From a virus (lineage: Duplodnaviria; Caudoviricetes), in IMG/VR virus record IMGVR_UViG_3300010051_000550, positions 1-64,000 of that record: a stretch of DNA of 64,000 bases; one strand, written 5' to 3'. How positions within the stretch are numbered: the first letter of the stretch is position 1; every line of letters starts with the position of its first letter. The notes under the pieces are model-generated. The model ran no database searches. It was given only the letters and a program-made list of their open reading frames with translations, and was not told the origin of the DNA. Made by a program: the position numbers and the translations under genes. Shown one piece after another: positions 3,289-63,589 of this stretch.

Positions 3289-3439
3289 GTCGCTGCAAAC
3301 GCACGTGACGGCGAAGTTCCCGGAGTTGAAGGTGCGGGATCACGCGCAGGCGCAGCGGGCGCGTCGGGAGCGGGAAGGGGCCAAGCGGCGGCGGACGGCG
3401 GCTGAGAAGCCGCAGAGTAAGGGTTGGTGGCAACGATGA
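3170..3439 (+). CDS. Small HTH DNA-binding protein
   Basis: GGAGG RBS before ATG 3170; EEIAERYQRGESWRALAVAYG helix-turn-helix; basic C-terminus. Confidence 0.6.
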   Translation: MSRKVFFDYRALPLEEIAERYQRGESWRALAVAYGCPDDKSLQTHVTAKFPELKVRDHAQAQRARREREGAKRRRTAAEKPQSKGWWQR

Positions 3440-4899
3440 GACGGGAAATTTCGAGACGGGAGTTTTTGGGGTTGGGCGCGGCTGCTGCGGCTGCTGCGGC
3501 GTTAGGGCTGGGGCCTCTGCGAGGCGGGCCGGCATGGGCGGCTGCGCTCGGCGACGTGCCGGCGGATGAACTCCCTGTTGACGGCGGTGGCCGGGTGGAG
3601 CGGCCGAACATCCTGCACATCATGACTGATGATCAGGATTATCAGTCATGGGCGGAGAAGTACACGCTGGTAGATCGGCGTGGGGAGGCGCTGCTCGATG
3701 CCGACGGCAATCCGCGCCAGGAGTACGCGATGCGTTTCGCACGCAGCTTTCCCGAGGGCGGGTGGACGGACTTCACGCAGCATACCTGCACCAGCGCGAT
3801 CTGCGCTCCGTCGCGGGCGGCGATTCTGTCGGGCGTGCCGGCCAGGGAGCACGGAGTGACGAGGAACGGCCTCATCGGCAACCTGGACGAGACAAACACG
3901 CTGGCGACGTGGCTGGCGGCGGCAGGCTACCGGACGCATCTGCTGGGCAAGTACTCGTTCGGCAAAGGCGGCCGCAAGCACCCGACGCCGCCGGGCTGGA
4001 CGACTTTTCAAGGGCGTGGCGGGTTGGCGAGGTGGATTTTCCAGAAGGGGGCGGAGGAAATTTACCGGTCGGCGGCCGACGCGGAGCCGTGGGCTATGTT
4101 CCTGTGGCCGGTGGACCCGCATCGGCGGGCCAAGCCTGAGGCGAAAAACGCAAAGATTGCCCTGCGACCGCCGGCGCTGCCGGAGAACATCAACGAGGCG
4201 GACATGAGCGATAAGCCGAGCTGGGTTCGCAACGCGAAGATGCTGCCGGTTGGGAAGCTGCGCGCGGCCGAGCGGGAGCGGGTTCGCGGCTATCAGGCGT
4301 TGATGGGCGTGGATCAGGGGATTGAGCAGGTGATCAATGCGCTTAAGGCCACGGGGCAGTTTGAACGGACGATCATCATCATCACGGCCGATAACGGGGA
4401 GAGCTGGGGCAGCCACCGGCAATTCCACAAGGACATGATCTATGACGAAGCGGCGCGCGTGCCGCTGGCGATCCGCGTGCCGTGGCTGCAGGAGAATCGG
4501 GCCGAGGGCCGGGTGGTCTCGTCGCTGGATGTGACGGCGACGATTGTGGAAGCGTGCGGGCTGTCGGCCGGCCGGCCGCTGATGGGGAACAGTCTGCTGC
4601 CGATCATTGAGGATGGCGCAGCTCCCTGGGAGGGCGCGGCTTATGTGGAGAGCCACGGCAGTCCGGGGACGAGGGGTAAGGGACGCCCGGCGTTCAAGGG
4701 GCTGCGGGTCGGCGGCGATGCATGGGGGCACTACAGCTATGCGTGGTACCCGGACACGGACGAGGTGGAACTGTATGACCGGACGGCCGACCCGGCGCAG
4801 TTAGAGAACTTGGCCGGGCGTGCGGAGTACGCGGCCGTGCGGGTCGCGCTGGAGGCGAGGCTGGCCGAGTTTTTAGGACGGGCAGGGTATCAGAGTTAG
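3436..4899 (+). CDS. Tat-exported Cys-type sulfatase (N-acetylglucosamine-6-sulfatase-like)
   Basis: Twin-arginine signal SRREFLGLGAAAA...AWA; RPNILHIMTDDQ; CAPSR formylglycine motif; GKY; TADNG; ELYD...DP.QLENLA C-terminus. Confidence 0.92.
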   Translation: MRREISRREFLGLGAAAAAAAALGLGPLRGGPAWAAALGDVPADELPVDGGGRVERPNILHIMTDDQDYQSWAEKYTLVDRRGEALLDADGNPRQEYAMRFARSFPEGGWTDFTQHTCTSAICAPSRAAILSGVPAREHGVTRNGLIGNLDETNTLATWLAAAGYRTHLLGKYSFGKGGRKHPTPPGWTTFQGRGGLARWIFQKGAEEIYRSAADAEPWAMFLWPVDPHRRAKPEAKNAKIALRPPALPENINEADMSDKPSWVRNAKMLPVGKLRAAERERVRGYQALMGVDQGIEQVINALKATGQFERTIIIITADNGESWGSHRQFHKDMIYDEAARVPLAIRVPWLQENRAEGRVVSSLDVTATIVEACGLSAGRPLMGNSLLPIIEDGAAPWEGAAYVESHGSPGTRGKGRPAFKGLRVGGDAWGHYSYAWYPDTDEVELYDRTADPAQLENLAGRAEYAAVRVALEARLAEFLGRAGYQS

Positions 4900-32948: not shown

Positions 32949-33322
32949 TGGCTCTTTGCAGATGGTCTGATTACCGATGTGACTTGTATATCTATGAGAG
33001 CGACTGGGGCATCGAGTGCCATGTGGCCTGGCGGCGGCGCGTGGGCGAACCGGAGCCGCCGCTTATCCCCGTGGATGGGGACGATGAGGCGTGGCTGGCG
33101 TGGCAAAAGGCATTTGTGGTTTATGAAGAGCAACTGCTGGCGGCGCCGCTGGAGCGGATCGGCCTGCCCCACGACGGAGAGAGCCGCACCTTCGGCGAGT
33201 GGGGCGAGTTGCTGGCGTATGTGACGGGGTTGAAGGAGTTGGGGTATGGGGTGCCGGATTGGGTGATTGAGGAGATCAAGGAGGAGGTTGCCGCGTCCGG
33301 TTTGTTGGAAAGCGAGGAGTGA
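32945..33322 (+). CDS. Hypothetical protein
   Basis: CRWS..CDLYIYES..G..CHVA motif. Confidence 0.65.
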   Translation: MMALCRWSDYRCDLYIYESDWGIECHVAWRRRVGEPEPPLIPVDGDDEAWLAWQKAFVVYEEQLLAAPLERIGLPHDGESRTFGEWGELLAYVTGLKELGYGVPDWVIEEIKEEVAASGLLESEE

Positions 33323-33374
33323 ACATGTGTTCACGCGGGGCGTATTGACGCGCGGCCGGGGCGCGTGATAACCT
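33319..33374 (+). promoter_or_regulatory. Capsid-operon promoter with upstream SOS-box-like palindrome
   Basis: GTGAACATGTGTTCAC (33319-33334), 10 nt, TTGACG (33345-33350), 18 nt, TAACCT (33369-33374) preceded by an extended -10 TG. Confidence 0.7.
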
Positions 33375-40355: not shown

Positions 40356-40426
40356 GAGATTGTACGATGATCAGAATGTCGATGAGCATCATTGATTAAG
40401 TTCTGGATGGACTATATCAATTATAA

Positions 40427-40855
40427 TTGACAGATCGAGTTCAAATGATCTATTATCCGGTTCCCTCAATCGAAATGAGCGCCCGGCAACATCGAGGGCG
40501 GGTGTCGAAAGTGCTAACTGGGCAAACAACCAATATGAGCGAAGAAAACAATGCCATCGAATTTAATATAGTCTGGGAATCGGATAGACACCTCCAGACG
40601 ATCTATGCCAATCACTTCTATATCACTCACGCTGGAGACGAGTTCTATTTGATGTTTGGCGAGCTACCGTCTCCAAATATTGCGAATATGGCCCCGGACA
40701 AAATAAGAGACTATCTTGGCGACAGTCTTGAGATCAGGCCCTTGGTACGGCTGGCTATCGCGCCTCAAACGATGCTCAGGATAGCCGAGGCCATACAAAC
40801 GAATGTGTCCAATTACATCGGGAAAAATATCGGTGGTAAGGACGATGAAGAATGA
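40427..40855 (+). CDS. DUF3467-like protein
   Basis: IYANHFYITHAGDEFYLMFG...PLVRLAIAPQT; likely start 40445 or 40535 because TATAAT lies at 40422-40427; low GC. Confidence 0.75.
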   Translation: MTDRVQMIYYPVPSIEMSARQHRGRVSKVLTGQTTNMSEENNAIEFNIVWESDRHLQTIYANHFYITHAGDEFYLMFGELPSPNIANMAPDKIRDYLGDSLEIRPLVRLAIAPQTMLRIAEAIQTNVSNYIGKNIGGKDDEE

Positions 40856-41301
40856 GCACCCTAACTCTAAGAGTTGATCCATTTTCCGGAACCGGCCTAA
40901 ATAGAGGACATCAGAAGATCGGCGATCTGCCAGCAATCTATCGCCGCAAGACAAATACAACGGCCCGCCCTAAGGTTACTCTGAGCGATGAGTCCAACTC
41001 GTCAACCGATACCGATTCAGGGGTCACATATCTTGTAGGACAAGGCGGGATCGACGGTGAATGGAAGCTCTTACAACCTCTCTCCATCGTCATAGAAATT
41101 GACGAGGACGGCGATTACATTGTGTCCGACAAAGTGTTCTCTAGATACGGTGTAGGTGCAACTGTGCTGGAGGCATTTAAGGACTTCATATCCGATCTAA
41201 CCACGTACTACACGATTGTTGCTGAGTCCGCGGCGCACAATCCGGCCGCGGCAGCGTTGTTAGAGGAGATTCAACAGTACCTTCAACGAGCAGATGGCTA
41301 A
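40852..41301 (+). CDS. HicB-like antitoxin with N-terminal extension
   Basis: IVIEIDEDGDYIV....YGVGATVLEAFKDF partial RNaseH fold pattern; ATGA coupling. Confidence 0.65.
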   Translation: MSTLTLRVDPFSGTGLNRGHQKIGDLPAIYRRKTNTTARPKVTLSDESNSSTDTDSGVTYLVGQGGIDGEWKLLQPLSIVIEIDEDGDYIVSDKVFSRYGVGATVLEAFKDFISDLTTYYTIVAESAAHNPAAAALLEEIQQYLQRADG

Positions 41302-41312
41302 ATACGTCTCAA

Positions 41313-41609
41313 ATGTTTACATCGAAACAGATTTTACGCACTTTGCGCACCAAGTTTAAATTTACCGACGTTAAAGGAAAGTATGCAGATATATACGTTA
41401 CGCTTGAACTCCCTGGAGTTCGGCCAGTTGTAACAAAGGTTTCACATCCTAAGTCCCAAAGAAAAACTGTCGGGAAACCCCTTGAGAACCTGATGGCAAA
41501 GCAGTTGCGCGTTGAGACACAGTACTTCCGTAACATGATCGGATGCACGCGCAGTCAGGAAGAGTATTATGAGCGACTCAGGTCAGAGCAGTTCCCGCCT
41601 GTCGAGTAG
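41313..41609 (+). CDS. HicA-like toxin (putative mRNA interferase)
   Basis: Small and basic; KQILRTL..KF.F..,TKVSH (His), KPLENLMAKQL. Confidence 0.6.
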   Translation: MFTSKQILRTLRTKFKFTDVKGKYADIYVTLELPGVRPVVTKVSHPKSQRKTVGKPLENLMAKQLRVETQYFRNMIGCTRSQEEYYERLRSEQFPPVE

Positions 41610-41621
41610 GTTCCCTGCGAA

Positions 41622-41665
41622 GGAAGAGTATGGAAAAGCCCCTCGAAATCGAGGGGCTTCTTGTT
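41622..41665. terminator. Terminator hairpin, right copy of the imperfect direct repeat
   Basis: GGAAGAGTATGGAAAAGCCCCTCGAAATCGAGGGGCTTCTTGTT. Confidence 0.75.
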
Positions 41666-41803
41666 TATTGGGGGCTAACCCACACCCCTCACGCCCGTGA
41701 GAGCAACCCATCGGCCGCAGGTTTCCGGTTCATCTGACGGTGTCTACCGTACCTGGGCGTTTAACGACTCGATCTATGTAGTATCGCTTTGACGAGTTAT
41801 TAA

Positions 41804-44800
41804 TCATGTTTTTGATAATCTCTGAAGTACGCGTTTTATGGGCGGGTTCTTGATGTTACGAGGGATAATGGGCAAATCACCTTTTTGTAAGGCAGCAATA
41901 TCCGGATCGTTTTCTCCTATCTCCCATGCGGACCGAATAATCAACTCATGCTTTCCAATTGCATAATCCCAATCCGGATCAGGAAACTCTGTTTCCGAGA
42001 TGTATTGTGCAGGTAGGAGGACATACCTTCCCACACTTTTATAGTTCTTCAAAAAACCATCTAGATTATCGGAGTTCTGTGGCTCCATTGTATGAACCCG
42101 ACTAACCAGATGTAATTGGTTGCCCTTTGATGGCCTAATAGCATTAAGGTTAGTAGAAATCATCATTCTGTAATTAGCTTTTTTTCTTCTGTTAATCCCC
42201 CTAATAATCGAGATTCGCAACTGATCCTCTTCGTCAACACTGCCAAATCTGTCTATCCACTTTCTGAAAATATGTTTGGCTGGCTCTATATTCTCGAAGC
42301 CAAGGCCCAAAATCAGTACATCTTCAGGCAAAAAACCGAAACTGATTGCGGTCCATTTTGCCCTATCCCAAAGCGGAATGTTAATAAGCGAAATTATCTT
42401 GCGATCTTTGTGTTTCAAATTATCGATTGCGAATGAGGACTCAGGAATTTCGCCTTTTCCTAATTCCAGAGTCCATTCCTCTCTTTCATCTATGCCCTCT
42501 GCTTCTAAGTGATGATCCCACGGGAGACTACGTTTCATGGGATAATCGATATCGCTTTTATCATCTTTCCAATCGGAAAGGCGGAATCTAGGCGAACTTC
42601 CGATCATATTCACAACCGCAATGTCAATGTCTGTAATAAGCATTGCTCGACCAATGCTATGCTCGCTTTTGGCTAGTCGCTCCGTGAATGAATCAGTATC
42701 AACAACCACACCAATTTGAAGAGTTGTGTGAAGTAGAAAGTCCAGTAGCCATGCACTGAAGTCGCCCCTCTCATCCTGATTAGTCCGTCTTAATGTCCGG
42801 GGATGCCTAATGCTTATGGTTTGGCCAGTAGCCGTTTCATCGGTTTCAAACTTTGGCAAGCCGGCAAGGAAATCAGATGGTTCAATCGAAATATGCAATT
42901 CAGAGCGATACGGCAATATTACACTTTCAAGGCTCGTTGCTAATAATGCTTCAAGCGCCCCTAAGATCGTTTCGGCCAAATATATCGAGGTATGGTCATT
43001 GAATGCGTGAATTGACACCTCGCAACCGAGTACATTCGAGCGAAGAGTAACCTTCTTGCTCAAGAGCAAGTCAGGTTGGTACAACAAGTCGCGGCTGGCA
43101 GGTTGATTACGCCACCTTATGAATAAGTCACAAATTTCTTCAGGGCTGTCGTTCTCAGAAATGATATTCTCTGAACGCAGGTATTCCTCATATCCCAGTA
43201 CATACAACAGCGCCATCCGTGAGTAGGAAAGTTCCGCTCGCTCCAAGACTGACGGTAAGAAGTTGAGCCATTTTGAATCCCATATGCTTAGCCTCAAGAA
43301 CTGTATCGCTAAGACCTGATCCTGAATAGTCCGTTCATTTATGAACTTCTCTTGTTTCTCCTCATTTAGGAGCAAGGATTTTGCCAACAATGAAGCTACT
43401 TCTATCCATTCAAGAACGTGAGGGATGCGACCCAGTTGTAACTCCAACCAAATTATCCTTTGGGTGAGGGCAAGTGTCTGCGGCAAGAGTTTTCCATATT
43501 TATGGTATGCTGACCAAGAAGAGTTGATAGCAATAAGGAGATTTGAACGTGCTGCCCATAATAATCCAACTCTTTCATACGCAGCTCCACAGGCAGCAAC
43601 TGACATAATCCACTCCTCCATATGCTCCTCCACGGCCAATTCCTGTTGGGACTTTCCGAGGAGCCTGATAGCATCGTAATTCTTACCTGCTAGCAATTTT
43701 TGATACCCACGTGTAAGATGCAATTCTCCGGCTACGCTATCACCTGTTCTACGCTTAATGAATTCCTCGACCTCTTCCATCAATTCATCGTACTTAGCGT
43801 GAGACGCCAGAATCATTCCTAGCTCTTGAATGATATGAATTGTCGAGATAACAGGGTACTCGGCCAGCCCTTGGCTCTTCTTTAAAATACTTCCAAGCTG
43901 AGTGAGGATACCATTCACTCCTCGTCCCTTTGCCAACGCCTCGGCTAGTTCCATGAGTAATTTGATTGTGCGTGCATGATGTGCATTATTCGGACGTTGG
44001 GAGCTCATTGCCAGGCGGTTGAGTTCGGCTTTAGCTGTCCTAGTACGTTTCGATAATTTTCTCCTGCTTGTACCGGGCCGGCCCCGCTGGACTTCAACAT
44101 GAAGAAGTTGCCATAGATTGATCATCAGTTCGATATCAGTTGTCTGATTACTGCCTACTGCCAACTCCTCGACTCGTTCATACAAATTGTCAAACAACTC
44201 AATATCGCCGTACCACCAATATGCTGTCCAAGCTCTATTGTAAGCAATACGTAACATCTGCTGCCGATGTCCAACTTTCATGGCAACATGCTCAGCACGT
44301 TCGAACCTAGCTTCGATCTCCATCCGAGAAAGTTCAAGCCCACGCGCAAGCAGTGCCACTTGCAAGCAGTCTTCCGCGAGTTGATACCTAACCCCCTTGT
44401 ATCTCTCAGGGTCATTGATGCGCTCCTCGAGTTCCTTCATTTCTGCTTGACGTTTTGTGTCCTGTGATCCCAACTCCCTCTTCGATAATTCACCGAAGCC
44501 TTCTATATGGAGCGATTCAATTGCAAGTCGTAACCGCTCGTGCTCGAAGACGCACTTTACGATCCAATTTCGATCAAGTACCCGAACATCTATGCTGAAC
44601 TCTCGGGACAAGGCATCTTCAACTTCAGCTCGGGTGCTGTCCTTTACAAATTGATTTGTTATGAAATAAACAAGCTTGTAGCTTCGATTAGTCTTGGCGA
44701 TTTTCTCGACGTCAGACCGAACCTTTGATCGCCAGTCTTTCTTGGCGCTGAAGGCAAATGCCCACCGTTCTTGACTAGCTTCCCTACCAACCCCCTCATA

Positions 44801-45142
44801 CCACCCTAGCGCAAGCTCGTCCGCAACCGGGTAAGTCTCGGTATCCACTTTACTGTCCCCTCCACCAGTCGACCCGGTTTGAGGTATCAGGTTTGGACAA
44901 ATTTCCTTTTCTGCCAATCTTCTGCAAAAGTGTTCGAATTCAATTTCTTGTTTTCGATGAGTAAGGGTTTCTAAGTGGTATTCGAAGCTCACTTGTGTCA
45001 ATTGAAGTGTAGTTGAGACCCTAGTATCAGAAAAAAGTTCGGGTCGCCGAGCGCGCATGAAGTCTGAGGGACGCCACTGCGATCCCTGTTGGTGTTCAAC
45101 ATCATGCGATGATGCTTCTTCAGGTAAACTGGTTTTCGACAT
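41804..45142 (-). CDS. Putative defence protein: N-terminal REase-like (PD-D/ExK) domain + TPR-like helical region
   Basis: 1112 aa, low GC; FEHFCRRL...TGGGDSKVD...FAFSAKKDW..KV.SDV.KI...Y.LVYFITNQ; no P-loop seen. Confidence 0.6.
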   Translation of the reverse strand: MSKTSLPEEASSHDVEHQQGSQWRPSDFMRARRPELFSDTRVSTTLQLTQVSFEYHLETLTHRKQEIEFEHFCRRLAEKEICPNLIPQTGSTGGGDSKVDTETYPVADELALGWYEGVGREASQERWAFAFSAKKDWRSKVRSDVEKIAKTNRSYKLVYFITNQFVKDSTRAEVEDALSREFSIDVRVLDRNWIVKCVFEHERLRLAIESLHIEGFGELSKRELGSQDTKRQAEMKELEERINDPERYKGVRYQLAEDCLQVALLARGLELSRMEIEARFERAEHVAMKVGHRQQMLRIAYNRAWTAYWWYGDIELFDNLYERVEELAVGSNQTTDIELMINLWQLLHVEVQRGRPGTSRRKLSKRTRTAKAELNRLAMSSQRPNNAHHARTIKLLMELAEALAKGRGVNGILTQLGSILKKSQGLAEYPVISTIHIIQELGMILASHAKYDELMEEVEEFIKRRTGDSVAGELHLTRGYQKLLAGKNYDAIRLLGKSQQELAVEEHMEEWIMSVAACGAAYERVGLLWAARSNLLIAINSSWSAYHKYGKLLPQTLALTQRIIWLELQLGRIPHVLEWIEVASLLAKSLLLNEEKQEKFINERTIQDQVLAIQFLRLSIWDSKWLNFLPSVLERAELSYSRMALLYVLGYEEYLRSENIISENDSPEEICDLFIRWRNQPASRDLLYQPDLLLSKKVTLRSNVLGCEVSIHAFNDHTSIYLAETILGALEALLATSLESVILPYRSELHISIEPSDFLAGLPKFETDETATGQTISIRHPRTLRRTNQDERGDFSAWLLDFLLHTTLQIGVVVDTDSFTERLAKSEHSIGRAMLITDIDIAVVNMIGSSPRFRLSDWKDDKSDIDYPMKRSLPWDHHLEAEGIDEREEWTLELGKGEIPESSFAIDNLKHKDRKIISLINIPLWDRAKWTAISFGFLPEDVLILGLGFENIEPAKHIFRKWIDRFGSVDEEDQLRISIIRGINRRKKANYRMMISTNLNAIRPSKGNQLHLVSRVHTMEPQNSDNLDGFLKNYKSVGRYVLLPAQYISETEFPDPDWDYAIGKHELIIRSAWEIGENDPDIAALQKGDLPIIPRNIKNPPIKRVLQRLSKT

Positions 45143-45216
45143 ATTAGATCAGCCGCACTGCACACGCCTATGGGAGCATCGCCGGGGTGCTTTATGTTGG
45201 CGCGCAAACGGATTTG

Positions 45217-46056
45217 TTAGTTCGTTTCGAAGCCGTGCGCAGCCAGGAAGTAGCGGCTGCAACTGGCGGTGTTACTAAACAGGTTGACGCTGAAGGGTAG
45301 CTCGGCGTTAGCGTCGACCTCCCCTTGGTCTGTGAAGGAACTGGGGGCAGCGATGGGCACCAGGTCGTCGTCGAAGCAGATGGCAGCGCCCTGAACAAGG
45401 TCCAGCGGGGCGTCGTTGGAGTTCAGCAGTATGCCGACGATATTGTTGCCGACGATATTGTGCTCAAGGACTTCGAGGTCGCGACGGGCAAGAAAGACGC
45501 TAGGGGCGTCTTGGGCTGTAACGCGGTAGTCGATGGTGGCGCCGTCCAGGTCAGTGTCCATGAACCCGACTGTACCGAAGGCGACGCTTCCAGGGGGCAC
45601 GTAGGATGGGGCGAAGAGAAGCCCGGAGCCGGTGCCTAGGACGCCGCCGGCTTCGTCACGGGCGGTGGCAGAGATTTCGACGTTGTAGACGGGGGCGTCG
45701 ACGTTGTTGCGGACGACAACGGAGATGCTACCGAATTCACTGGGCTGACCTTGGGCAATCACGGAGAGGCCGGGACCACCAGCGGGCAGATCGTCGGGGG
45801 TTATGTTGGCTGTGGCGAGGTAGGAAGTGGGTTCGATTGCGGCCGCGGGCGCTGGGGTAGGAGGCGGCGGTGCCGTCGGGGCGACTTCAACGAGGCGGGT
45901 GACCTCCACCTCAATCTCGACGAGGCGGGTGACTTCTACTTCAATCTCAACCAAGCGGGTAATTTCGATTTGCTCGGCTTGGGGGGCGGCCGTGGGCTGT
46001 CCGCCGCAGGCGCTAAGAAGATGGGTAGCGAGAGCGATTAGGGCAATGCGTTTCAA
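45217..46056 (-). CDS. Lipoprotein with VEVTRLVE repeats and FxLYD-like domains
   Basis: GGAGG RBS before TTG 46056; lipobox LSAC; EVTRLVEIEV repeats; VRNN..A.VYNVEI.A...D..G.VLGT. Confidence 0.75.
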   Translation of the reverse strand: MKRIALIALATHLLSACGGQPTAAPQAEQIEITRLVEIEVEVTRLVEIEVEVTRLVEVAPTAPPPPTPAPAAAIEPTSYLATANITPDDLPAGGPGLSVIAQGQPSEFGSISVVVRNNVDAPVYNVEISATARDEAGGVLGTGSGLLFAPSYVPPGSVAFGTVGFMDTDLDGATIDYRVTAQDAPSVFLARRDLEVLEHNIVGNNIVGILLNSNDAPLDLVQGAAICFDDDLVPIAAPSSFTDQGEVDANAELPFSVNLFSNTASCSRYFLAAHGFETN

Positions 46057-46370
46057 TGGGAGCCTCCTGTTTGTATCGGATTGGCTCGGCCACGGGAACA
46101 CGCGGCGGAGTATGAGGCGGACTATAAATGATAGGGTCTATCTGGTCAATCGTTTTGGCGAGGCGCGGCCGATGTGGATGGCGTGGGCTTGGTGGGCAGG
46201 GCGGTCCCGGCTGGATGTGGTTACCATGTACACTAGAGACGCGCGGGTTTTCATTCGGCCGGGGGATGAGATCTGGCGGAATAGCGGGGATTGCGAGTTA
46301 TAATGTGCGGAAGGGGTTGAAGTGTCGCGGTTTTGGTGGAGTTTGTTTTGTGCAAAAGGAGTGAAACAAA

Positions 46371-46823: not shown

Positions 46824-46878
46824 GTGAACATCTGTTCACATCGGCCGCGTGTACAGGAGTGCTCGAGTGACCTATAAT
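46824..46878 (+). promoter_or_regulatory. Tail-operon promoter with upstream SOS-box-like palindrome
   Basis: (T)GTGAACATCTGTTCAC(A) (46823-46840), 10 nt, TGTACA (46850-46855), 17 nt, TATAAT (46873-46878). Confidence 0.7.
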
Positions 46879-58853: not shown

Positions 58854-60055
58854 TGGCGATTGATTCGGCCGACAAGCGCCGTTCGGTGCAGGGCTATGCC
58901 GGAGTGTTTGCGGTTATTCCGCCGCTGCCGGATACGGCCGTCGATGAGAATGACCGCAAGCACGCGGCCGGCATCTATCGCGGCAGCCTGATCGCGCAGG
59001 CGATCTTCTCGCTGCTGGAGCCGGCGGGTGTCTCGATCCTGTTCCTGATTGGGGACATCAACGGCCGGGTGCTGACGGAAATCAATCCGTATGTGCATCG
59101 GGTGTCGTGGCGGCACAATGCCATCGGTTCGACGGTCTTCACGATGGCGCGGACGGACCCGAAGTTGAGCGAGGAATATTTCAACGAGGGGAACCGGGTG
59201 CTGCTGGCGTTCGACAACGGGCTTCAGGAGTGGGGCGGGGTGCTGACCGGCGCGCGCGACTGGACGGATTCATCGGTGAGCTTCGAGGCGTATAGCGCGG
59301 AGTGGGTGCTGGCGACGCGGCGCACGCCACGGTCGCGGTATTTCAGCGACGCGCAGGTGGGGACGATTCTGTCTTCGCTAATTCAGGAGGCGAATGTCTT
59401 CTACCCGACAGGATTGAAGCTGGGGAATATCTGGCAGGGTGGAGCAGCGCATTCTCCTGATTATCACTACAAGTCGCTGTATGACGTGGTGGCCGAGAGT
59501 CTGGTCGGCAATCTGAGTGCGGGGGCGTTTGACGTGACGCCGGCGCTGGAGGGCGGGGTCATCGAGTTCTATGTGAACCTCTACGAGCGCAAGGGAGGCG
59601 ACAAGACGAATGTGGCGCTGGTGGAGGGGCAGAACATCAGTGCCGTCCGCTATCGGGAGATTGACGAGATCGTGAACACCTGGCACATGGCCGGTGAAGG
59701 CGACGGCTGGACGGATGACGCGCGGGTGTATGCGACGGTGCTGGAGGGGGCCAGTGTGGGTCGTCACGGGATGCGGGAGGATTTTGAGTTGCGGTCGGGG
59801 GTGGTGCAGCAGGCGACGATTGACCAGACGGCCGCCAAGCGACTGCAGGAAACGGCGTGGCCGACGCGCGTGCTGGGCCTGTCGGTGACGAATTCACCGC
59901 CGGCTCGGTTTCGGGATTACGGCATCGGAGACACGGTAACGTGCCGGCTGCCGTCGTATGGGTTCAACGGGGTGCGCGGGACGTTCGAGGTGAGGGCGCG
60001 GGAGTTCTTTCCGAGTGATGGCGCGGCGGATCTCGTGCTGGTGGAGGCTCGGTGA
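58853..60055 (+). CDS. Minor tail / baseplate hub protein (Tal/Gp37-like)
   Basis: TAATG coupling; WGG.L; FRDYGIGDTV pattern. Confidence 0.7.
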   Translation: MAIDSADKRRSVQGYAGVFAVIPPLPDTAVDENDRKHAAGIYRGSLIAQAIFSLLEPAGVSILFLIGDINGRVLTEINPYVHRVSWRHNAIGSTVFTMARTDPKLSEEYFNEGNRVLLAFDNGLQEWGGVLTGARDWTDSSVSFEAYSAEWVLATRRTPRSRYFSDAQVGTILSSLIQEANVFYPTGLKLGNIWQGGAAHSPDYHYKSLYDVVAESLVGNLSAGAFDVTPALEGGVIEFYVNLYERKGGDKTNVALVEGQNISAVRYREIDEIVNTWHMAGEGDGWTDDARVYATVLEGASVGRHGMREDFELRSGVVQQATIDQTAAKRLQETAWPTRVLGLSVTNSPPARFRDYGIGDTVTCRLPSYGFNGVRGTFEVRAREFFPSDGAADLVLVEAR

Positions 60056-60612
60056 TGTTTGGGAGATTGCAGGTTGTAACGAATCGCCGGCCGCTGGAAG
60101 GCGGAACGCTGCTGGCCGACTTCCTGGGGGAGAGCAATCTGCTGACGCGGACGCGCAAGCTGGAGCAGCAGACGGAGGAGATCGGGACGTCGCTGTTGTC
60201 GGCGGCGGCGGCCGGGCAGGTGTACACGCGGCGGCGCGGCGCGCTGATGTTCACGGGATGGGGACAGTCGTCGGTGCCGGCGTCGCAGTCGAATGTGACG
60301 CTGTCGCGCTTCGGCGTGGGGTGGCAGGGGCCGCTGGTGCTGCCGTTCGCGGGGTCGGTGACGGGGCTGCTGGTGACGATGAGCGCGCAGCAGACGTCCG
60401 GCTCGCTGACGGTGAAGGTGTATGTCTCCGGCTCGGCCAGCGGTATGGAAGCGGTTATTGACAGTGAGAACCGGTTGTATGTTGAGGAAACAGCGGGACA
60501 GGGCGAGTTTGGCTTCGAGGCGGGGGAGCCGATCACGTTACGCATCTCGACGGCGAGTTGGGCGCCGACGACGGCCGACGTGTTCGTGATGCTCGAGGTC
60601 GCGGCGGGGTAG
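60052..60612 (+). CDS. Minor tail protein
   Basis: GTGA coupling; beta-sandwich C-terminus. Confidence 0.6.
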   Translation: MMFGRLQVVTNRRPLEGGTLLADFLGESNLLTRTRKLEQQTEEIGTSLLSAAAAGQVYTRRRGALMFTGWGQSSVPASQSNVTLSRFGVGWQGPLVLPFAGSVTGLLVTMSAQQTSGSLTVKVYVSGSASGMEAVIDSENRLYVEETAGQGEFGFEAGEPITLRISTASWAPTTADVFVMLEVAAG

Positions 60613-60616
60613 GGAT

Positions 60617-61300
60617 ATGACGGATACGGGCGAGGTTGTACTGGTAATTATTGCGATAACTGCGGCGCTGCCGGGGCTGGTGGTCATCTATGTGACGAAA
60701 CGGCAGCAGGTGGCGCTTCGGACGCAGATGCAGCAGCAGATTGAGGCGCAGCTGCAGAAACAGATCGAGGCGCAGCAGGCGGCGCTGCGGGCGCAGATGC
60801 AAGAGCAGATCGAGGCGCAGCAGCGGACGATTCGATTCCTGACGGGGCGGATGGATGAGATGGAGCGGGCGCGGGCGGAGGAGTATGCGGAGACGGAGAT
60901 TCTGCGGCAGGAGACGGATGACTTGCGGCAGGAGGCGTCAGATTTCCGGCATGAGTTGCGGGAGCTGCGGAACGGTGTGGCGGCTCTGACGCGGCAGATT
61001 GAGGCGGCGGGCATGACGCCGACATGGGTGCCGCCGGCGAAGCCCTCGCGCGAGGCACAGGTGGTGAAGCAGGACGCGATAGAGCTGATGCGGTTCATCG
61101 GGACGCATTTCGACATGGATGAGATCACCGACCTGGCGTACCAGCTGGGGATCGATATTGAGAACGTAGCAGGAGAGAACAAAGAGGCGAAAGCGCGGTC
61201 GTTGGTGAGGTATATGCAGCGGCGAAAGCGGTTGGAACAGCTGCGGGAGCTTGCCCGGTCATTGCGGCCGGGAGGAGAGATGTCTGATGGCGGAGTATAG
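60617..61300 (+). CDS. TM + coiled-coil protein with C-terminal EAD7-like effector-associated domain
   Basis: TM VVLVIIAITAALPGLVVIYV; QIEAQ coil; HFDMDEITDLAYQLGIDIENVAGENKEAKARSLVRYMQRRKRLEQLRELARSLRP. Confidence 0.7.
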   Translation: MTDTGEVVLVIIAITAALPGLVVIYVTKRQQVALRTQMQQQIEAQLQKQIEAQQAALRAQMQEQIEAQQRTIRFLTGRMDEMERARAEEYAETEILRQETDDLRQEASDFRHELRELRNGVAALTRQIEAAGMTPTWVPPAKPSREAQVVKQDAIELMRFIGTHFDMDEITDLAYQLGIDIENVAGENKEAKARSLVRYMQRRKRLEQLRELARSLRPGGEMSDGGV

Positions 61301-61338: not shown

Positions 61339-62826
61339 ATGACCGAATACACAGTAGGAAGCGGCGGTGATTTTGTGACCCTGGCGGCCGCGGCGAAGGC
61401 GGTTAAGGCCGGCGACGTTGTGCATATCAGGGCCGGGGTCTATAGGGAACTATTGACGCTTGACACACCCCGCGTGGCGTGGGTGGGTGAACCCGGCGCG
61501 GTCATCGACGGCGGCTGGGACGGCAAGACAAAAACAGAATCGTGGGCAAACCAGGTCACTTTCAAGGCTCCGGGAGTGACAGTGCGAGGGTTGACGATCC
61601 GCAATTGCCCAGGACGAGGCGTGGCGATACTGGCCGATGATCCCACACTGGAAAAATGCATTGTCGAGAATACGTACCGAGGGGCCATCTTGGTCGGTGA
61701 TTCGACCGGCGCGCCGATCTCGGGCGTCACCATTCGGGGCAATGTCTTCCGCCGGATGTCGCTGGCGTGGGACGTGGGCGACCGGGGTAAAAACGGCCGC
61801 AGCGTGAACGGCTCGTTTAACGTCCAGAATGTGCGCAGCCACAACGCGAAGGGAGAGGCACGGCCGAGTGTCATCGAGGACAACGTGCTCCATGACGGCA
61901 ACGGGGAGGCGTACAACATCGGACGCGGGTCTGAGGACGTTTTGGTCATTGGGAACGAAGCCTATAGCACCAGCCATGTGGGCTACTACACCAACCATGC
62001 CGCACGCACGATCTTCGAAAGGAATATCTTTTACCACATCCCCAACCCGAAATACGGCGGGGCGAAAGGGGACAAATATAGCGCCGCGTTTGTTATCGGA
62101 GATGAGGCGGGAATCGGCGAGAAGGGTTTCCCGCCGTCGCATGGCACGGTTATACGCGGCAACGTTGTGGTGAACGCAGGCAAGTTCCTTCAAGTTCGCA
62201 ACAACAAGCATAACTACGATACGAAGTTTCTGGGCACTGTGGTCGAGGATAACACCTTCATCGCCGGACCGCAGACCACGCAGGGGATCATGATTCAGGC
62301 GAACGTGCACGGTCGGCCGCACAAGGACAGCGTCGTTCGCAACAACGTCATCGACATGACCCACGCGGCGAATGGGGCCGTCATTGCCGCGCACCCGCAG
62401 GGGAGCGGCGTAGAGTTCGTGGGGAATGCGTGGAGCAGGCAGCCGCCGGCGGCGCTGCGGTCGCCTTCGGATGTGGTGGGCACGCTGGGCATTGTCCGTC
62501 CCGACGCACCGCGCGATAAGGGATTGGACCTCGAGAACTACCGGCCGTTGCCGGACTCGCCGCTCGTTCGCGGCGACGGATTTGTTATCGGAGCGCTCGC
62601 GCCGAAGGGCGGCACACCGCCTGAGGAACCGGAACCACCGGAGGAGCCGCCGACTGATCCGCCTGAGGAACCGGAACCGCCGGAGGAGCCGGACATCAGT
62701 GATAGGGTGCTGGAGGAGCTACGCGCCGTTCGCGAGATGGTGATGGCGGCATTGGATGCGGGAGAGAGAGCGCTTGGCGCAGTGGACAAGTTGATCGCGT
62801 TGCTCGAATCGGGCAGCGATATTTAG
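61339..62826 (+). CDS. Right-handed parallel beta-helix enzyme (pectate-lyase-like depolymerase)
   Basis: TLAAAAKAVKAGDVVHIRAGVYRE; repeated I.GN.F/IEDN strands; PEEPEPP linker; helical tail. Confidence 0.85.
   Translation: MTEYTVGSGGDFVTLAAAAKAVKAGDVVHIRAGVYRELLTLDTPRVAWVGEPGAVIDGGWDGKTKTESWANQVTFKAPGVTVRGLTIRNCPGRGVAILADDPTLEKCIVENTYRGAILVGDSTGAPISGVTIRGNVFRRMSLAWDVGDRGKNGRSVNGSFNVQNVRSHNAKGEARPSVIEDNVLHDGNGEAYNIGRGSEDVLVIGNEAYSTSHVGYYTNHAARTIFERNIFYHIPNPKYGGAKGDKYSAAFVIGDEAGIGEKGFPPSHGTVIRGNVVVNAGKFLQVRNNKHNYDTKFLGTVVEDNTFIAGPQTTQGIMIQANVHGRPHKDSVVRNNVIDMTHAANGAVIAAHPQGSGVEFVGNAWSRQPPAALRSPSDVVGTLGIVRPDAPRDKGLDLENYRPLPDSPLVRGDGFVIGALAPKGGTPPEEPEPPEEPPTDPPEEPEPPEEPDISDRVLEELRAVREMVMAALDAGERALGAVDKLIALLESGSDI
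62617..62693 (+). repeat. 42-bp tandem duplication encoding a PPEEPEPPEEP linker
   Basis: CCGCCTGAGGAACCGGAACC(A/G)CCGGAGGAGCCG twice. Confidence 0.8.
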
Positions 62827-62848: not shown

Positions 62849-63265
62849 GTGAATGAGATGGGATTTGAGGATTTGGCAGTGGTTGGCGGCGTGTTGGCGT
62901 TGGCGGGTTTTTTGGCCGGCACCGTTGAGCGCGTGATCGAAAAGGCGCTGAAGCCGATGTTCGAGAAGCTTTTCGTGGCGTTCGGTCTGGGCGCGGAGAA
63001 GCTCAGTGCGTTCATCCCGCTCGTGGCGTTCGTGCTTGGCGCTTTGCTCTCCTACGGGTTCGGGCTGGACTTGTTCGCGCCGCTCGCGGAAGTTGTGGGC
63101 CTGGAGCCGGCGGCCTGGCTGACGCAAGGACTGACGGCCGTCGTCGTCGGCGGCGGCAGCAACCTGATTAACGACCTCTGGCCGCAGACCGGCGGCGTAC
63201 TGGAGCCGGTTGAGTTGGAGATCGATGAGGAGGGCAATGTGACGAGCATTGCCCGGTTGGGTTAA
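62849..63265 (+). CDS. Holin-like membrane protein
   Basis: 3 hydrophobic segments; GLDLF...LTAVVVGGGSNLINDL holin pattern. Confidence 0.75.
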   Translation: MNEMGFEDLAVVGGVLALAGFLAGTVERVIEKALKPMFEKLFVAFGLGAEKLSAFIPLVAFVLGALLSYGFGLDLFAPLAEVVGLEPAAWLTQGLTAVVVGGGSNLINDLWPQTGGVLEPVELEIDEEGNVTSIARLG

Positions 63266-63328
63266 CCGGCCCCAGAGTTGATAGCTATGCCCGGCCGCTC
63301 AAAAGGCGGCCGGGCAATGTGTAACAGG

Positions 63329-63589
63329 ATGAACGAGCAACCGGACGACCTGCGCGCCTATTTGTCGGAGGCGGAGGCGCTGGTGATGGACTGGTATAGC
63401 CGCGACGGGGTTGAGGGGTCGCATGGGGCGAATCTGGACATGATCGCCACATTGCTGGGCCTCGACGTGGTGATGAATACAGATTGGCCGTTCGCGATGT
63501 TGAGGGACCGAGCATCCCTCTTCCTGGTGGCGGCGTTTCAGATGGGACGGGCGGCTGCTTATGGCGACGACAGTAGTTCTGCTGAGTGA
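63329..63589 (+). CDS. Hypothetical protein
   Basis: Short ORF; start uncertain. Confidence 0.45.
   Translation: MNEQPDDLRAYLSEAEALVMDWYSRDGVEGSHGANLDMIATLLGLDVVMNTDWPFAMLRDRASLFLVAAFQMGRAAAYGDDSSSAE

Follow-up and report, generated by a model that had tools for sequence, protein, structure and literature searches.

EAD/Death-like adaptors are believed to connect the immune sensors of bacteria with suicide effectors, as prokaryotic counterparts of CARD, DD, and PYD signaling; viral FLIPs and pyrin-only proteins, which are virus-encoded Death-fold inhibitors, offer an analogy. To our knowledge, only one phage Death-fold protein has been characterized so far, a small CARD-only inhibitor, and every characterized viral Death-fold protein that we know of acts on host Death-fold signaling. 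EAD7 has been described as a small all-alpha, non-enzymatic adaptor that serves mainly in effector recruitment (Kaur et al. 2020; PMC7159879). It is known from NTPase-centered conflict systems in which homotypic EAD pairs recruit effectors, under a coupling principle whereby a core NTPase or sensor component of that genome, in many cases encoded next door, bears a copy of the same EAD (PMC7159879). The papers that define EAD7 (Kaur, Burroughs, Iyer and Aravind; PMC7159879, PMC8195603) do not mention a phage-encoded EAD7, and we found no biochemical data on EAD7 in the cited literature. Acinetobacter phage 133 encodes a CARD-only protein of 141 aa that inhibits a CARD-dependent gasdermin defense (Wein et al.; PMC10312443), and the CARD-NLR-like LypABC is required for the lysis and release of gene transfer agents in Caulobacter (Banks et al. 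2026; PMC13236601). An earlier, sequence-only reading of the locus analyzed here had suggested either a decoy that blocks host conflict systems or a trigger that recruits host death effectors to time lysis, and had stated that it knew of no described phage system of this kind. That statement is out of date, because both ideas have published analogues, in the CARD-only inhibitor and in LypABC, respectively.

The locus lies in a window of 64,000 nucleotides that opens an IMG/VR provirus record of 79.7 kb, and the window belongs to a temperate phage. The gene at 60617..61300 (plus strand, ATG start; from the ORF list) encodes a protein of 227 aa in which a membrane anchor and a coiled-coil stalk are followed by an EAD7 domain, a feature that extends the range of phage-encoded Death-fold adaptors and is real and well supported. 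The EAD7/Death-like helical domain spans aa 145 to 218 (61049..61270); residues 157 to 218 within it (nt 61085-61270) match Pfam EAD7 (PF19960) over positions 1 to 62 of the 62-position profile, with an E value of 2.1e-19 and 69.5 bits against a cut-off of 32 bits. The last 74 aa alone gave an E value of 3.7e-20, and a six-frame family search of the whole record returned the same match at 61085-61270 with 71.3 bits. For the predicted product, the match is far above chance level, and against the cellular Pfam EAD7 model the phage domain reaches scores as high as those of cellular members. The domain is small and all-helical and matched no catalytic family. Searches with PADLOC and NCBIfam returned only coiled-coil noise; the PHROGs gave no match for the protein, and no holin or antiholin family was matched in Pfam or PHROGs.

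A domain-only model built on a 20-sequence alignment (pLDDT 87, pTM 0.74) comprises 78 residues with four clear long helices and a short helical turn; on this basis, the domain may represent the six-helix Death fold in shortened form. In an exhaustive VIA-align search against 48,161 PDB representatives, the top match was 8ss1, a bacterial Death-like domain from Azospirillum solved by Wein et al. (PMC10312443), with a Z of 8.8 and an rmsd of 2.0 Å over 72 of the 78 residues; it was followed mainly by CARD, DD, PYD, and DED domains and also by the viral FLIP MC159 (Z 6.3), these being moderate values in a range, below about 13, that can be common among helical bundles. The assignment to the Death fold is credible because Death-fold entries predominate in the match list, where they make up most of the top 50. 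Death-fold domains assemble into homotypic oligomers, as can be seen from the filament structures of CARD, DD, and PYD domains in the match list. Foldseek with the domain model found nothing in the PDB at E ≤ 1e-3, its weak top rows also being CARD and DD entries, and a BFVD fold search with the full-length model likewise found nothing at E ≤ 1e-3.

The N-terminal membrane anchor (60635..60694), delimited by hydropathy and flank charges, is a hydrophobic helix of 20 residues at aa 7 to 26. Summed over 23 family members, the N-terminal flanks of this helix contain 28 D/E residues and 7 K/R residues, of which a single protein contributes four, and the 15 residues C-terminal of it contain 69 K/R; P19, K28, and R29 are invariant in the family. 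Under the positive-inside rule, these flank charges predict an N-out/C-in orientation with the stalk and EAD7 facing the cytoplasm, a placement that agrees with EAD7 being otherwise fused to cytoplasmic NTPases. A signal peptide was considered for the N terminus and rejected on the strength of the acidic n-region and the 20-residue hydrophobic core. In the full-length AlphaFold2 model (17-sequence family alignment, mean pLDDT 80), a single continuous helix of aa 4 to 130 with a pLDDT of about 90 is followed by a disordered Pro-rich linker and then by the compact helical domain. The predicted cytoplasmic coiled-coil stalk (aa 27 to 130; 60695..61006) is rich in Q, E, and R and includes a stalk core at aa 64 to 105 (60806-60931), while the variable linker (aa 131 to 144; 61007..61048) starts with a conserved MTPxW.PP motif and is non-helical in the model, with pLDDT values of 55 to 62. 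The sequence-only reading had described a TM helix, a Gln/Glu coiled coil, and a C-terminal domain, and the ORF, hydropathy, AlphaFold2, and Pfam results show every one of these elements to be right. From a motif corresponding to residues 165 to 218 it had also named the domain as EAD7-like, proposing an HMM check of the C-terminal part against Pfam, and had called the fold Death-like; the full-profile match to PF19960 bears out the former and the model-based structural matches, headed by 8ss1 and continuing with CARD, DD, PYD, and DED domains, agree with the latter.

Conservation is unevenly distributed along the protein. Within the close family, conservation peaks in the stalk core, with a mean pairwise identity of 86.5% compared with 65.9% for EAD7, and the linker region at aa 133 to 152 is the least conserved (48.7%). 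Since the stalk core is under the strongest constraint there, the stalk would be neither a passive nor a generic tether. Among distant lineages, by contrast, EAD7 is the best-kept part (46% compared with 40%), and the predicted domain is the feature common to all lineages.

At the left end of the window, an integrase gene is followed by Rep-O-like, ParB, and methylase genes, and the structural module includes a gpA-type large terminase and a capsid gene. The replication module also carries an intact sulfatase gene with a Tat signal (3424-4899), which gives no clue to the host because look-alike clusters in the Atlas span many phyla. Inside the structural module lies a low-GC island (40400-46300; 0.44-0.54 compared with about 0.62) with a 1,112-aa minus-strand ORF (41804-45142) and a 294-aa ORF (45217-46101), both without a Pfam or PADLOC match; a DUF3467 gene (40427-40855) adjoins these ORFs. 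A 2,444-aa ORF matches a 2,402-aa gene annotated as PhageMin_Tail in a related locus (L003), and tail genes follow it. Past the tail genes, the order is EAD7 gene, beta-helix enzyme, 138-aa TM protein, and conserved small genes. The last conserved gene of the tail module (186 aa; 60052..60612, plus strand) lies directly upstream of the EAD7 gene, which starts 4 nt past the upstream stop and is preceded by a G-rich RBS. In the stretch from 54 to 64 kb, we found no sigma-70-like promoter and no more terminator-like sites than chance would give. Because there is no promoter, no excess of terminators, and only this short distance from the upstream stop, the EAD7 gene would be read together with the tail and lysis genes, and on this arrangement it is part of a predicted late tail-to-lysis transcription unit.

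Downstream, on the same strand, 61339..62826 encodes a right-handed beta-helix (Pel9A-like) enzyme of 495-500 aa (Pfam Beta_helix, E 5.6e-11; Pel9A-like in L003), whose ATG at 61339 has a GGAGGA RBS. The C terminus of this enzyme (62620-62826) consists of a Pro/Glu-rich linker and an amphipathic helix that might serve for docking, for instance of the conserved stalk of the EAD7 protein. The next gene (62849..63265, plus strand) encodes a protein of 138 aa with three predicted TM segments that is holin-like by size, topology, and position only, having a weak match to an unnamed PHROG and no match to a holin family. It is followed by a gene for a conserved 103-aa protein of the lysis cassette (63278..63589, plus strand), which is 59-60% identical to L003_85 and L004_89 in the same relative position. 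A protein of 1,068 aa with a central GH25 muramidase domain is encoded beyond the window (L002:4804-8010, corresponding to 64804-68010 of the record), 3.5 kb past the conserved small genes; in L004, its homolog directly follows the beta-helix gene. It is through this protein that the phage has a canonical peptidoglycan hydrolase, none being encoded inside the window. Near the right end of the provirus record, an MmeI-type restriction-modification/methyltransferase gene (L002:11802-15248, minus strand, corresponding to 71802-75248 of the record; 1,147 aa) adjoins a low-GC stretch, with SNase/Excalibur genes nearby.

A search of 5.8 billion proteins returned 22 clusters of homologs that were 46-69% identical, 196-234 aa long, and all equipped with EAD7. 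With the EAD7 domain as query, an exhaustive profile search yielded 6,213 representatives at E ≤ 1e-3. The layout of anchor, stalk, and EAD7 recurs in about a dozen clusters at 50% identity; in the ESM Atlas, EAD7 proteins of 172-199 aa form clusters of 53-79 members that are labeled 50-100% viral. No match to the EAD7 domain emerged when 50,697 GenBank phage records were searched by tblastn, pattern scans of IMG/VR with three family alignments gave no further member, and a word-index search for longer fused forms of the phage EAD7 found none. The family is invisible to annotation pipelines because it has neither a PHROG nor a member in cultured phages.

The genomic contexts, drawn from assemblies and a metagenome scan, place the EAD7 gene at the same junction in about 20 independent loci, following either a homolog of the 186-aa gene or a small membrane-protein gene behind it; all of these loci were found via the EAD7 gene itself, an ascertainment bias that bears on whether the gene is core to the cassette. 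The homolog of the 186-aa gene lies upstream, directly or via a holin-like gene, in L003, L006, L009, L015, L020-L022, L024, and L027-L030, so the consensus slot runs from the last tail gene through an optional holin-like gene and the EAD7 gene to the beta-helix enzyme or a second holin-like gene. A protein of 95-109 aa with two or three TM segments is encoded immediately upstream in L004, L012, L015, L016, L021, L025, L027, and L029, and in the four of these loci with called genes its gene runs into the start of the EAD7 gene, with an overlap of 4 bp in L004, L015, and L016 and a longer one in L012. A second small TM protein follows immediately downstream in L016, L021, L025, and L026, which gives L016, L021, and L025 small TM genes on both flanks. 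"Holin-like" refers here to size, TM count, and position, and these flanking proteins match no holin family, with the exception of the one in L009, where the gene immediately downstream of the EAD7 gene encodes a family-level holin (phrog_565, E 2e-6). The beta-helix gene is the commonest downstream neighbor and follows EAD7 in most loci, though not immediately in L009, L010, L016, and L025; in L004, the EAD7, beta-helix, and GH25 genes succeed one another with 4-bp overlaps. In L010, which represents a different phage lineage, the late operon ends with genes for a LysM protein, a coiled-coil protein, and the EAD7 protein. A scan of IMG/VR for the tail gene returned only two unrelated low-GC phages that have a 43-aa motif in common. 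The position beside lysis genes in a phage, as the sequence-only reading had described it, is thus kept across about 20 related loci.

Cellular EAD7 relatives have the architectures that Kaur et al. would lead one to expect, with nSTAND1 and NACHT-like NTPases, CHAT, Roc-COR, and bDLD1, commonly with EAD7 in 3-7 tandem copies. Among single-domain relatives, TIR-EAD7 and EAD7-TIR proteins come nearest, with 47-50% identity. Overall, the phage domains are 35-50% identical to those of cellular STAND, CHAT, Roc-COR, and TIR proteins, which are relatives of the conflict-system type that had been expected. In a domain tree of 163 rows, built on a short alignment that limits its resolution, 22 of the 24 phage-type rows fell on one side of a branch with an SH-aLRT of 87; the only other rows in that group were proteins of 53-161 aa that resemble fragments of the same family. 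These findings fit a single old acquisition of EAD7 followed by evolution within phages rather than a recent capture. Of the proposal that the phage captured a host immune adaptor, what stands is a single old clade with 35-50% identity to cellular EAD7, and the recent event does not.

No second EAD7 was found in the 79.7-kb provirus record, in which the next best match of a sensitive HMM had an E value of about 2; within the record, the coupling expected from cellular systems, with a cognate EAD7 on an NTPase or sensor, is therefore lacking. Among all flanks examined, another EAD7 protein was encoded only in L010 (L010:12762-13286, minus strand), where an apparently soluble protein of 174 aa lies 4 kb from the anchored EAD7 gene and on the opposite strand. 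A recently duplicated cognate pair was considered for the two L010 proteins and rejected: they are 36% identical, their match comes first by only a small margin when searched one way and takes 34th place when searched the other way, and their join in the tree was flagged as long-branch. With no second EAD7 in the provirus and one in the flanks of L010 only, self-association would be the simplest phage-internal partnership.

The sequence-only reading had referred to the EAD systems of filamentous Chloroflexota; a Chloroflexota host is not established. The sole GTDB genome with a relative is a MAG labeled "uncultured Alcaligenaceae", in which the relative lies on L006 (CAYTOT010000073.1), an 18.9-kb contig that is all phage. 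The MAG contains LpxC and lacks the phage TerL, of which no relative was found in 301 genomes of the MAG's order, and the host flank of a related prophage had no DNA match in the MAG. An Alcaligenaceae host was rejected on these grounds, and the label is probably a binning artifact. No other EAD7 was found in the MAG, and none above threshold in 30 of its relatives. The window contains two perfect TGAACA-N2-TGTTCA palindromes (33320-33333 and 46825-46838; 0.05 expected by chance), which could be Cheo-type LexA boxes or phage-repressor operators, and no CTGT-N8-ACAG boxes; the palindromes and the absence of these boxes weakly favor a non-proteobacterial host.

We favor, with a probability of roughly 0.4, the reading that the EAD7 protein is a late inner-membrane, holin-associated lysis regulator that acts via homotypic EAD7 assembly. 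The N-terminal anchor (N outside, C inside) would carry the conserved coiled-coil stalk of about 100 residues, which in turn would hold the Death-fold EAD7 on the cytoplasmic side of the membrane. The conserved phage partner bound by the stalk core would be the small membrane proteins encoded on the flanks or else a further copy of the stalk core, and the EAD7 tips would make homotypic contacts of the Death-fold type, so that the complex would cluster and the clustering would set or sharpen the moment of the membrane lesion. Our analyses show the layout of the protein, its predicted topology, the identity and fold of EAD7, the place in the late operon, and a conserved neighborhood of holin-like, beta-helix, and GH25 genes; we infer the binding partners, the self-assembly of EAD7, and the effect on lysis timing. 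A place in the late operon without a promoter of its own and 4 nt past the upstream stop argues for this regulator, as do the junction kept in about 20 loci with holin-like neighbors, 4-bp overlaps, and the phrog_565 holin of L009, although all loci were gathered via the EAD7 gene and the flanking small membrane proteins other than that of L009 match no holin family. The constraint on the stalk core is consistent with it, and the predicted N-out/C-in orientation puts the stalk and EAD7 where the cytoplasmic tails of holins lie. While EAD7 self-assembly and holin binding are putative, a provirus with no second EAD7 and the homotypic oligomerization of Death-fold domains point in the same direction. 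However, outside these phages, conflict systems are the only setting in which EAD7 is known (PMC7159879), and the known viral Death-fold proteins target host signaling (PMC10312443); both points favor an immune decoy. The EAD7 tip would then bind host EAD7 sensors (STAND, Roc-COR, VMAP) or effectors (TIR, CHAT) and hold these partners at the membrane late in infection, when sensed virion proteins abound, so that abortive infection would be blocked in the manner of viral FLIPs, pyrin-only proteins, and the CARD-only protein of phage 133. We consider such a decoy and its proposed mechanism possible but rather unlikely. The homotypic effector recruitment of NTPase-centered conflict systems (PMC7159879), the TIR-EAD7, EAD7-TIR, STAND, CHAT, and Roc-COR relatives, the Pfam score equal to that of cellular members, and the phage CARD-only protein that inhibits a CARD-dependent defense (PMC10312443) all speak for it, and, with the EAD7 of the provirus an orphan, a partner gene elsewhere is implied. 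Yet the host EAD7 partner is putative, and the sole genome with a relative and 30 relatives of that genome have no other EAD7, albeit in a bin that is itself doubtful. Moreover, decoy function calls for no membrane anchor and for no stalk that is more conserved than the decoy domain, and a fixed slot between overlapping holin-like genes is unusual for anti-defense cargo.

The combination of a lysis-cassette position with an immune-adaptor domain could also be read as co-option, in which the tethered EAD7 would recruit or activate host EAD7 death effectors, thereby aiding or triggering lysis or coupling early lysis to immune activation. LypABC provides a precedent in the lysis and release of the Caulobacter GTA (PMC13236601), but the phage has its own holin-like proteins, beta-helix enzyme, and GH25 muramidase, so host effectors are not obviously needed. 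The host partner is putative here as in the decoy model, and an essential step that rests on patchy host immune genes would be fragile; co-option thus appears improbable to us. Slimmer still are the chances of another membrane role without EAD-type pairing, such as superinfection exclusion in lysogens, a spanin-like role in the envelope, or service as a tether or chaperone for the beta-helix enzyme. An anchor plus a coiled coil is a generic layout, with weak architecture-level matches that include ArlX/FlaX scaffolds and coiled-coil proteins, and the beta-helix gene is the commonest neighbor, but it is not directly downstream in L009, L010, L016, and L025. The predicted C-in topology is the opposite of that of an i-spanin, no lipoprotein partner was seen, the gene lacks a promoter of its own for expression in the lysogen, and EAD7 is the best-kept part across distant lineages. 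The lysis regulator that we favor and an interference with host signaling are compatible with each other: gene order, codon overlaps, predicted late expression, topology, and the constrained stalk point to a role in the lysis module, whereas the identity of the domain and the behavior of characterized viral Death-fold proteins point to interference with host Death-fold signaling. A speculative and, in our estimate, doubtful combination of the two would be a death-receptor-like phage protein, with a single-pass anchor, an oligomerizing stalk, and a cytoplasmic Death-fold domain, that is wired into the holin module and in which Death-fold assembly, either self-nucleated or seeded by host EAD7 immune sensors, controls an all-or-none lysis decision. 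If true, it would represent a direct molecular link from bacterial immune death signaling to the timing of phage lysis.

Our combined results suggest a previously undescribed link between phage lysis and host death signaling, in which Death-fold assembly might serve as a phage lysis clock or host death signaling might be intercepted at the membrane just as late virion proteins set it off. In either case, phage lysis cassettes would gain a new component class, and there would be an experimental handle on EAD7. In comparison with known systems, the phage domain resembles cellular EAD7 (PF19960) in its full-length match and in being small, all-helical, and non-enzymatic, but its fusion partners are a membrane anchor and a coiled coil rather than an NTPase or effector, and it is present as a single orphan copy in a lysis cassette rather than in a conflict operon. 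Holins and antiholins with cytoplasmic domains are likewise small phage membrane or membrane-associated proteins of lysis cassettes with a charged cytoplasmic region, and T4 RIII acts on the cytoplasmic part of holin T. The EAD7 protein has one TM segment, a charged cytoplasmic part, and a cassette position, but this cytoplasmic part is ~200 aa long and there is no sequence match to a holin or antiholin family; we know of no counterpart among described holins to a 200-residue cytoplasmic part that ends in a Death-fold domain. Its orientation, as predicted from 23 members, is also opposite to that of Rz-like i-spanins, which are N-in/C-out with a periplasmic coiled coil, and a cursory inspection of the adjacent small genes revealed no lipobox that would indicate an o-spanin lipoprotein partner.

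Neither of the two published analogues (PMC10312443, PMC13236601) describes a membrane-anchored, holin-linked EAD7 protein. With the CARD-only protein of phage 133, the EAD7 protein has in common that it is a virus-encoded Death-fold adaptor without an enzymatic part, but the 141-aa protein, which lies beside rIIA, shows no sequence relationship to the phage EAD7 (hhalign probability 0.3%). The phage 133 protein is small, has a CARD-like domain as its only predicted domain, and adjoins rIIAB, whereas the EAD7 protein is predicted from its sequence and context to have an anchor, a 100-residue stalk, a late position, and a linkage to holins; with its anchor and stalk, it does not consist of a Death-fold domain only, as CARD-only anti-defense proteins do. 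LypABC resembles the present locus in that Death-fold immune-type modules are tied to lysis by a phage-like element. It is, however, a host-encoded set of a protease, an NLR-like ATPase, and a protease that replaces the holin-endolysin pathway, whereas the EAD7 protein is a single phage-encoded adaptor in a cassette that keeps its holin-like and muramidase genes.
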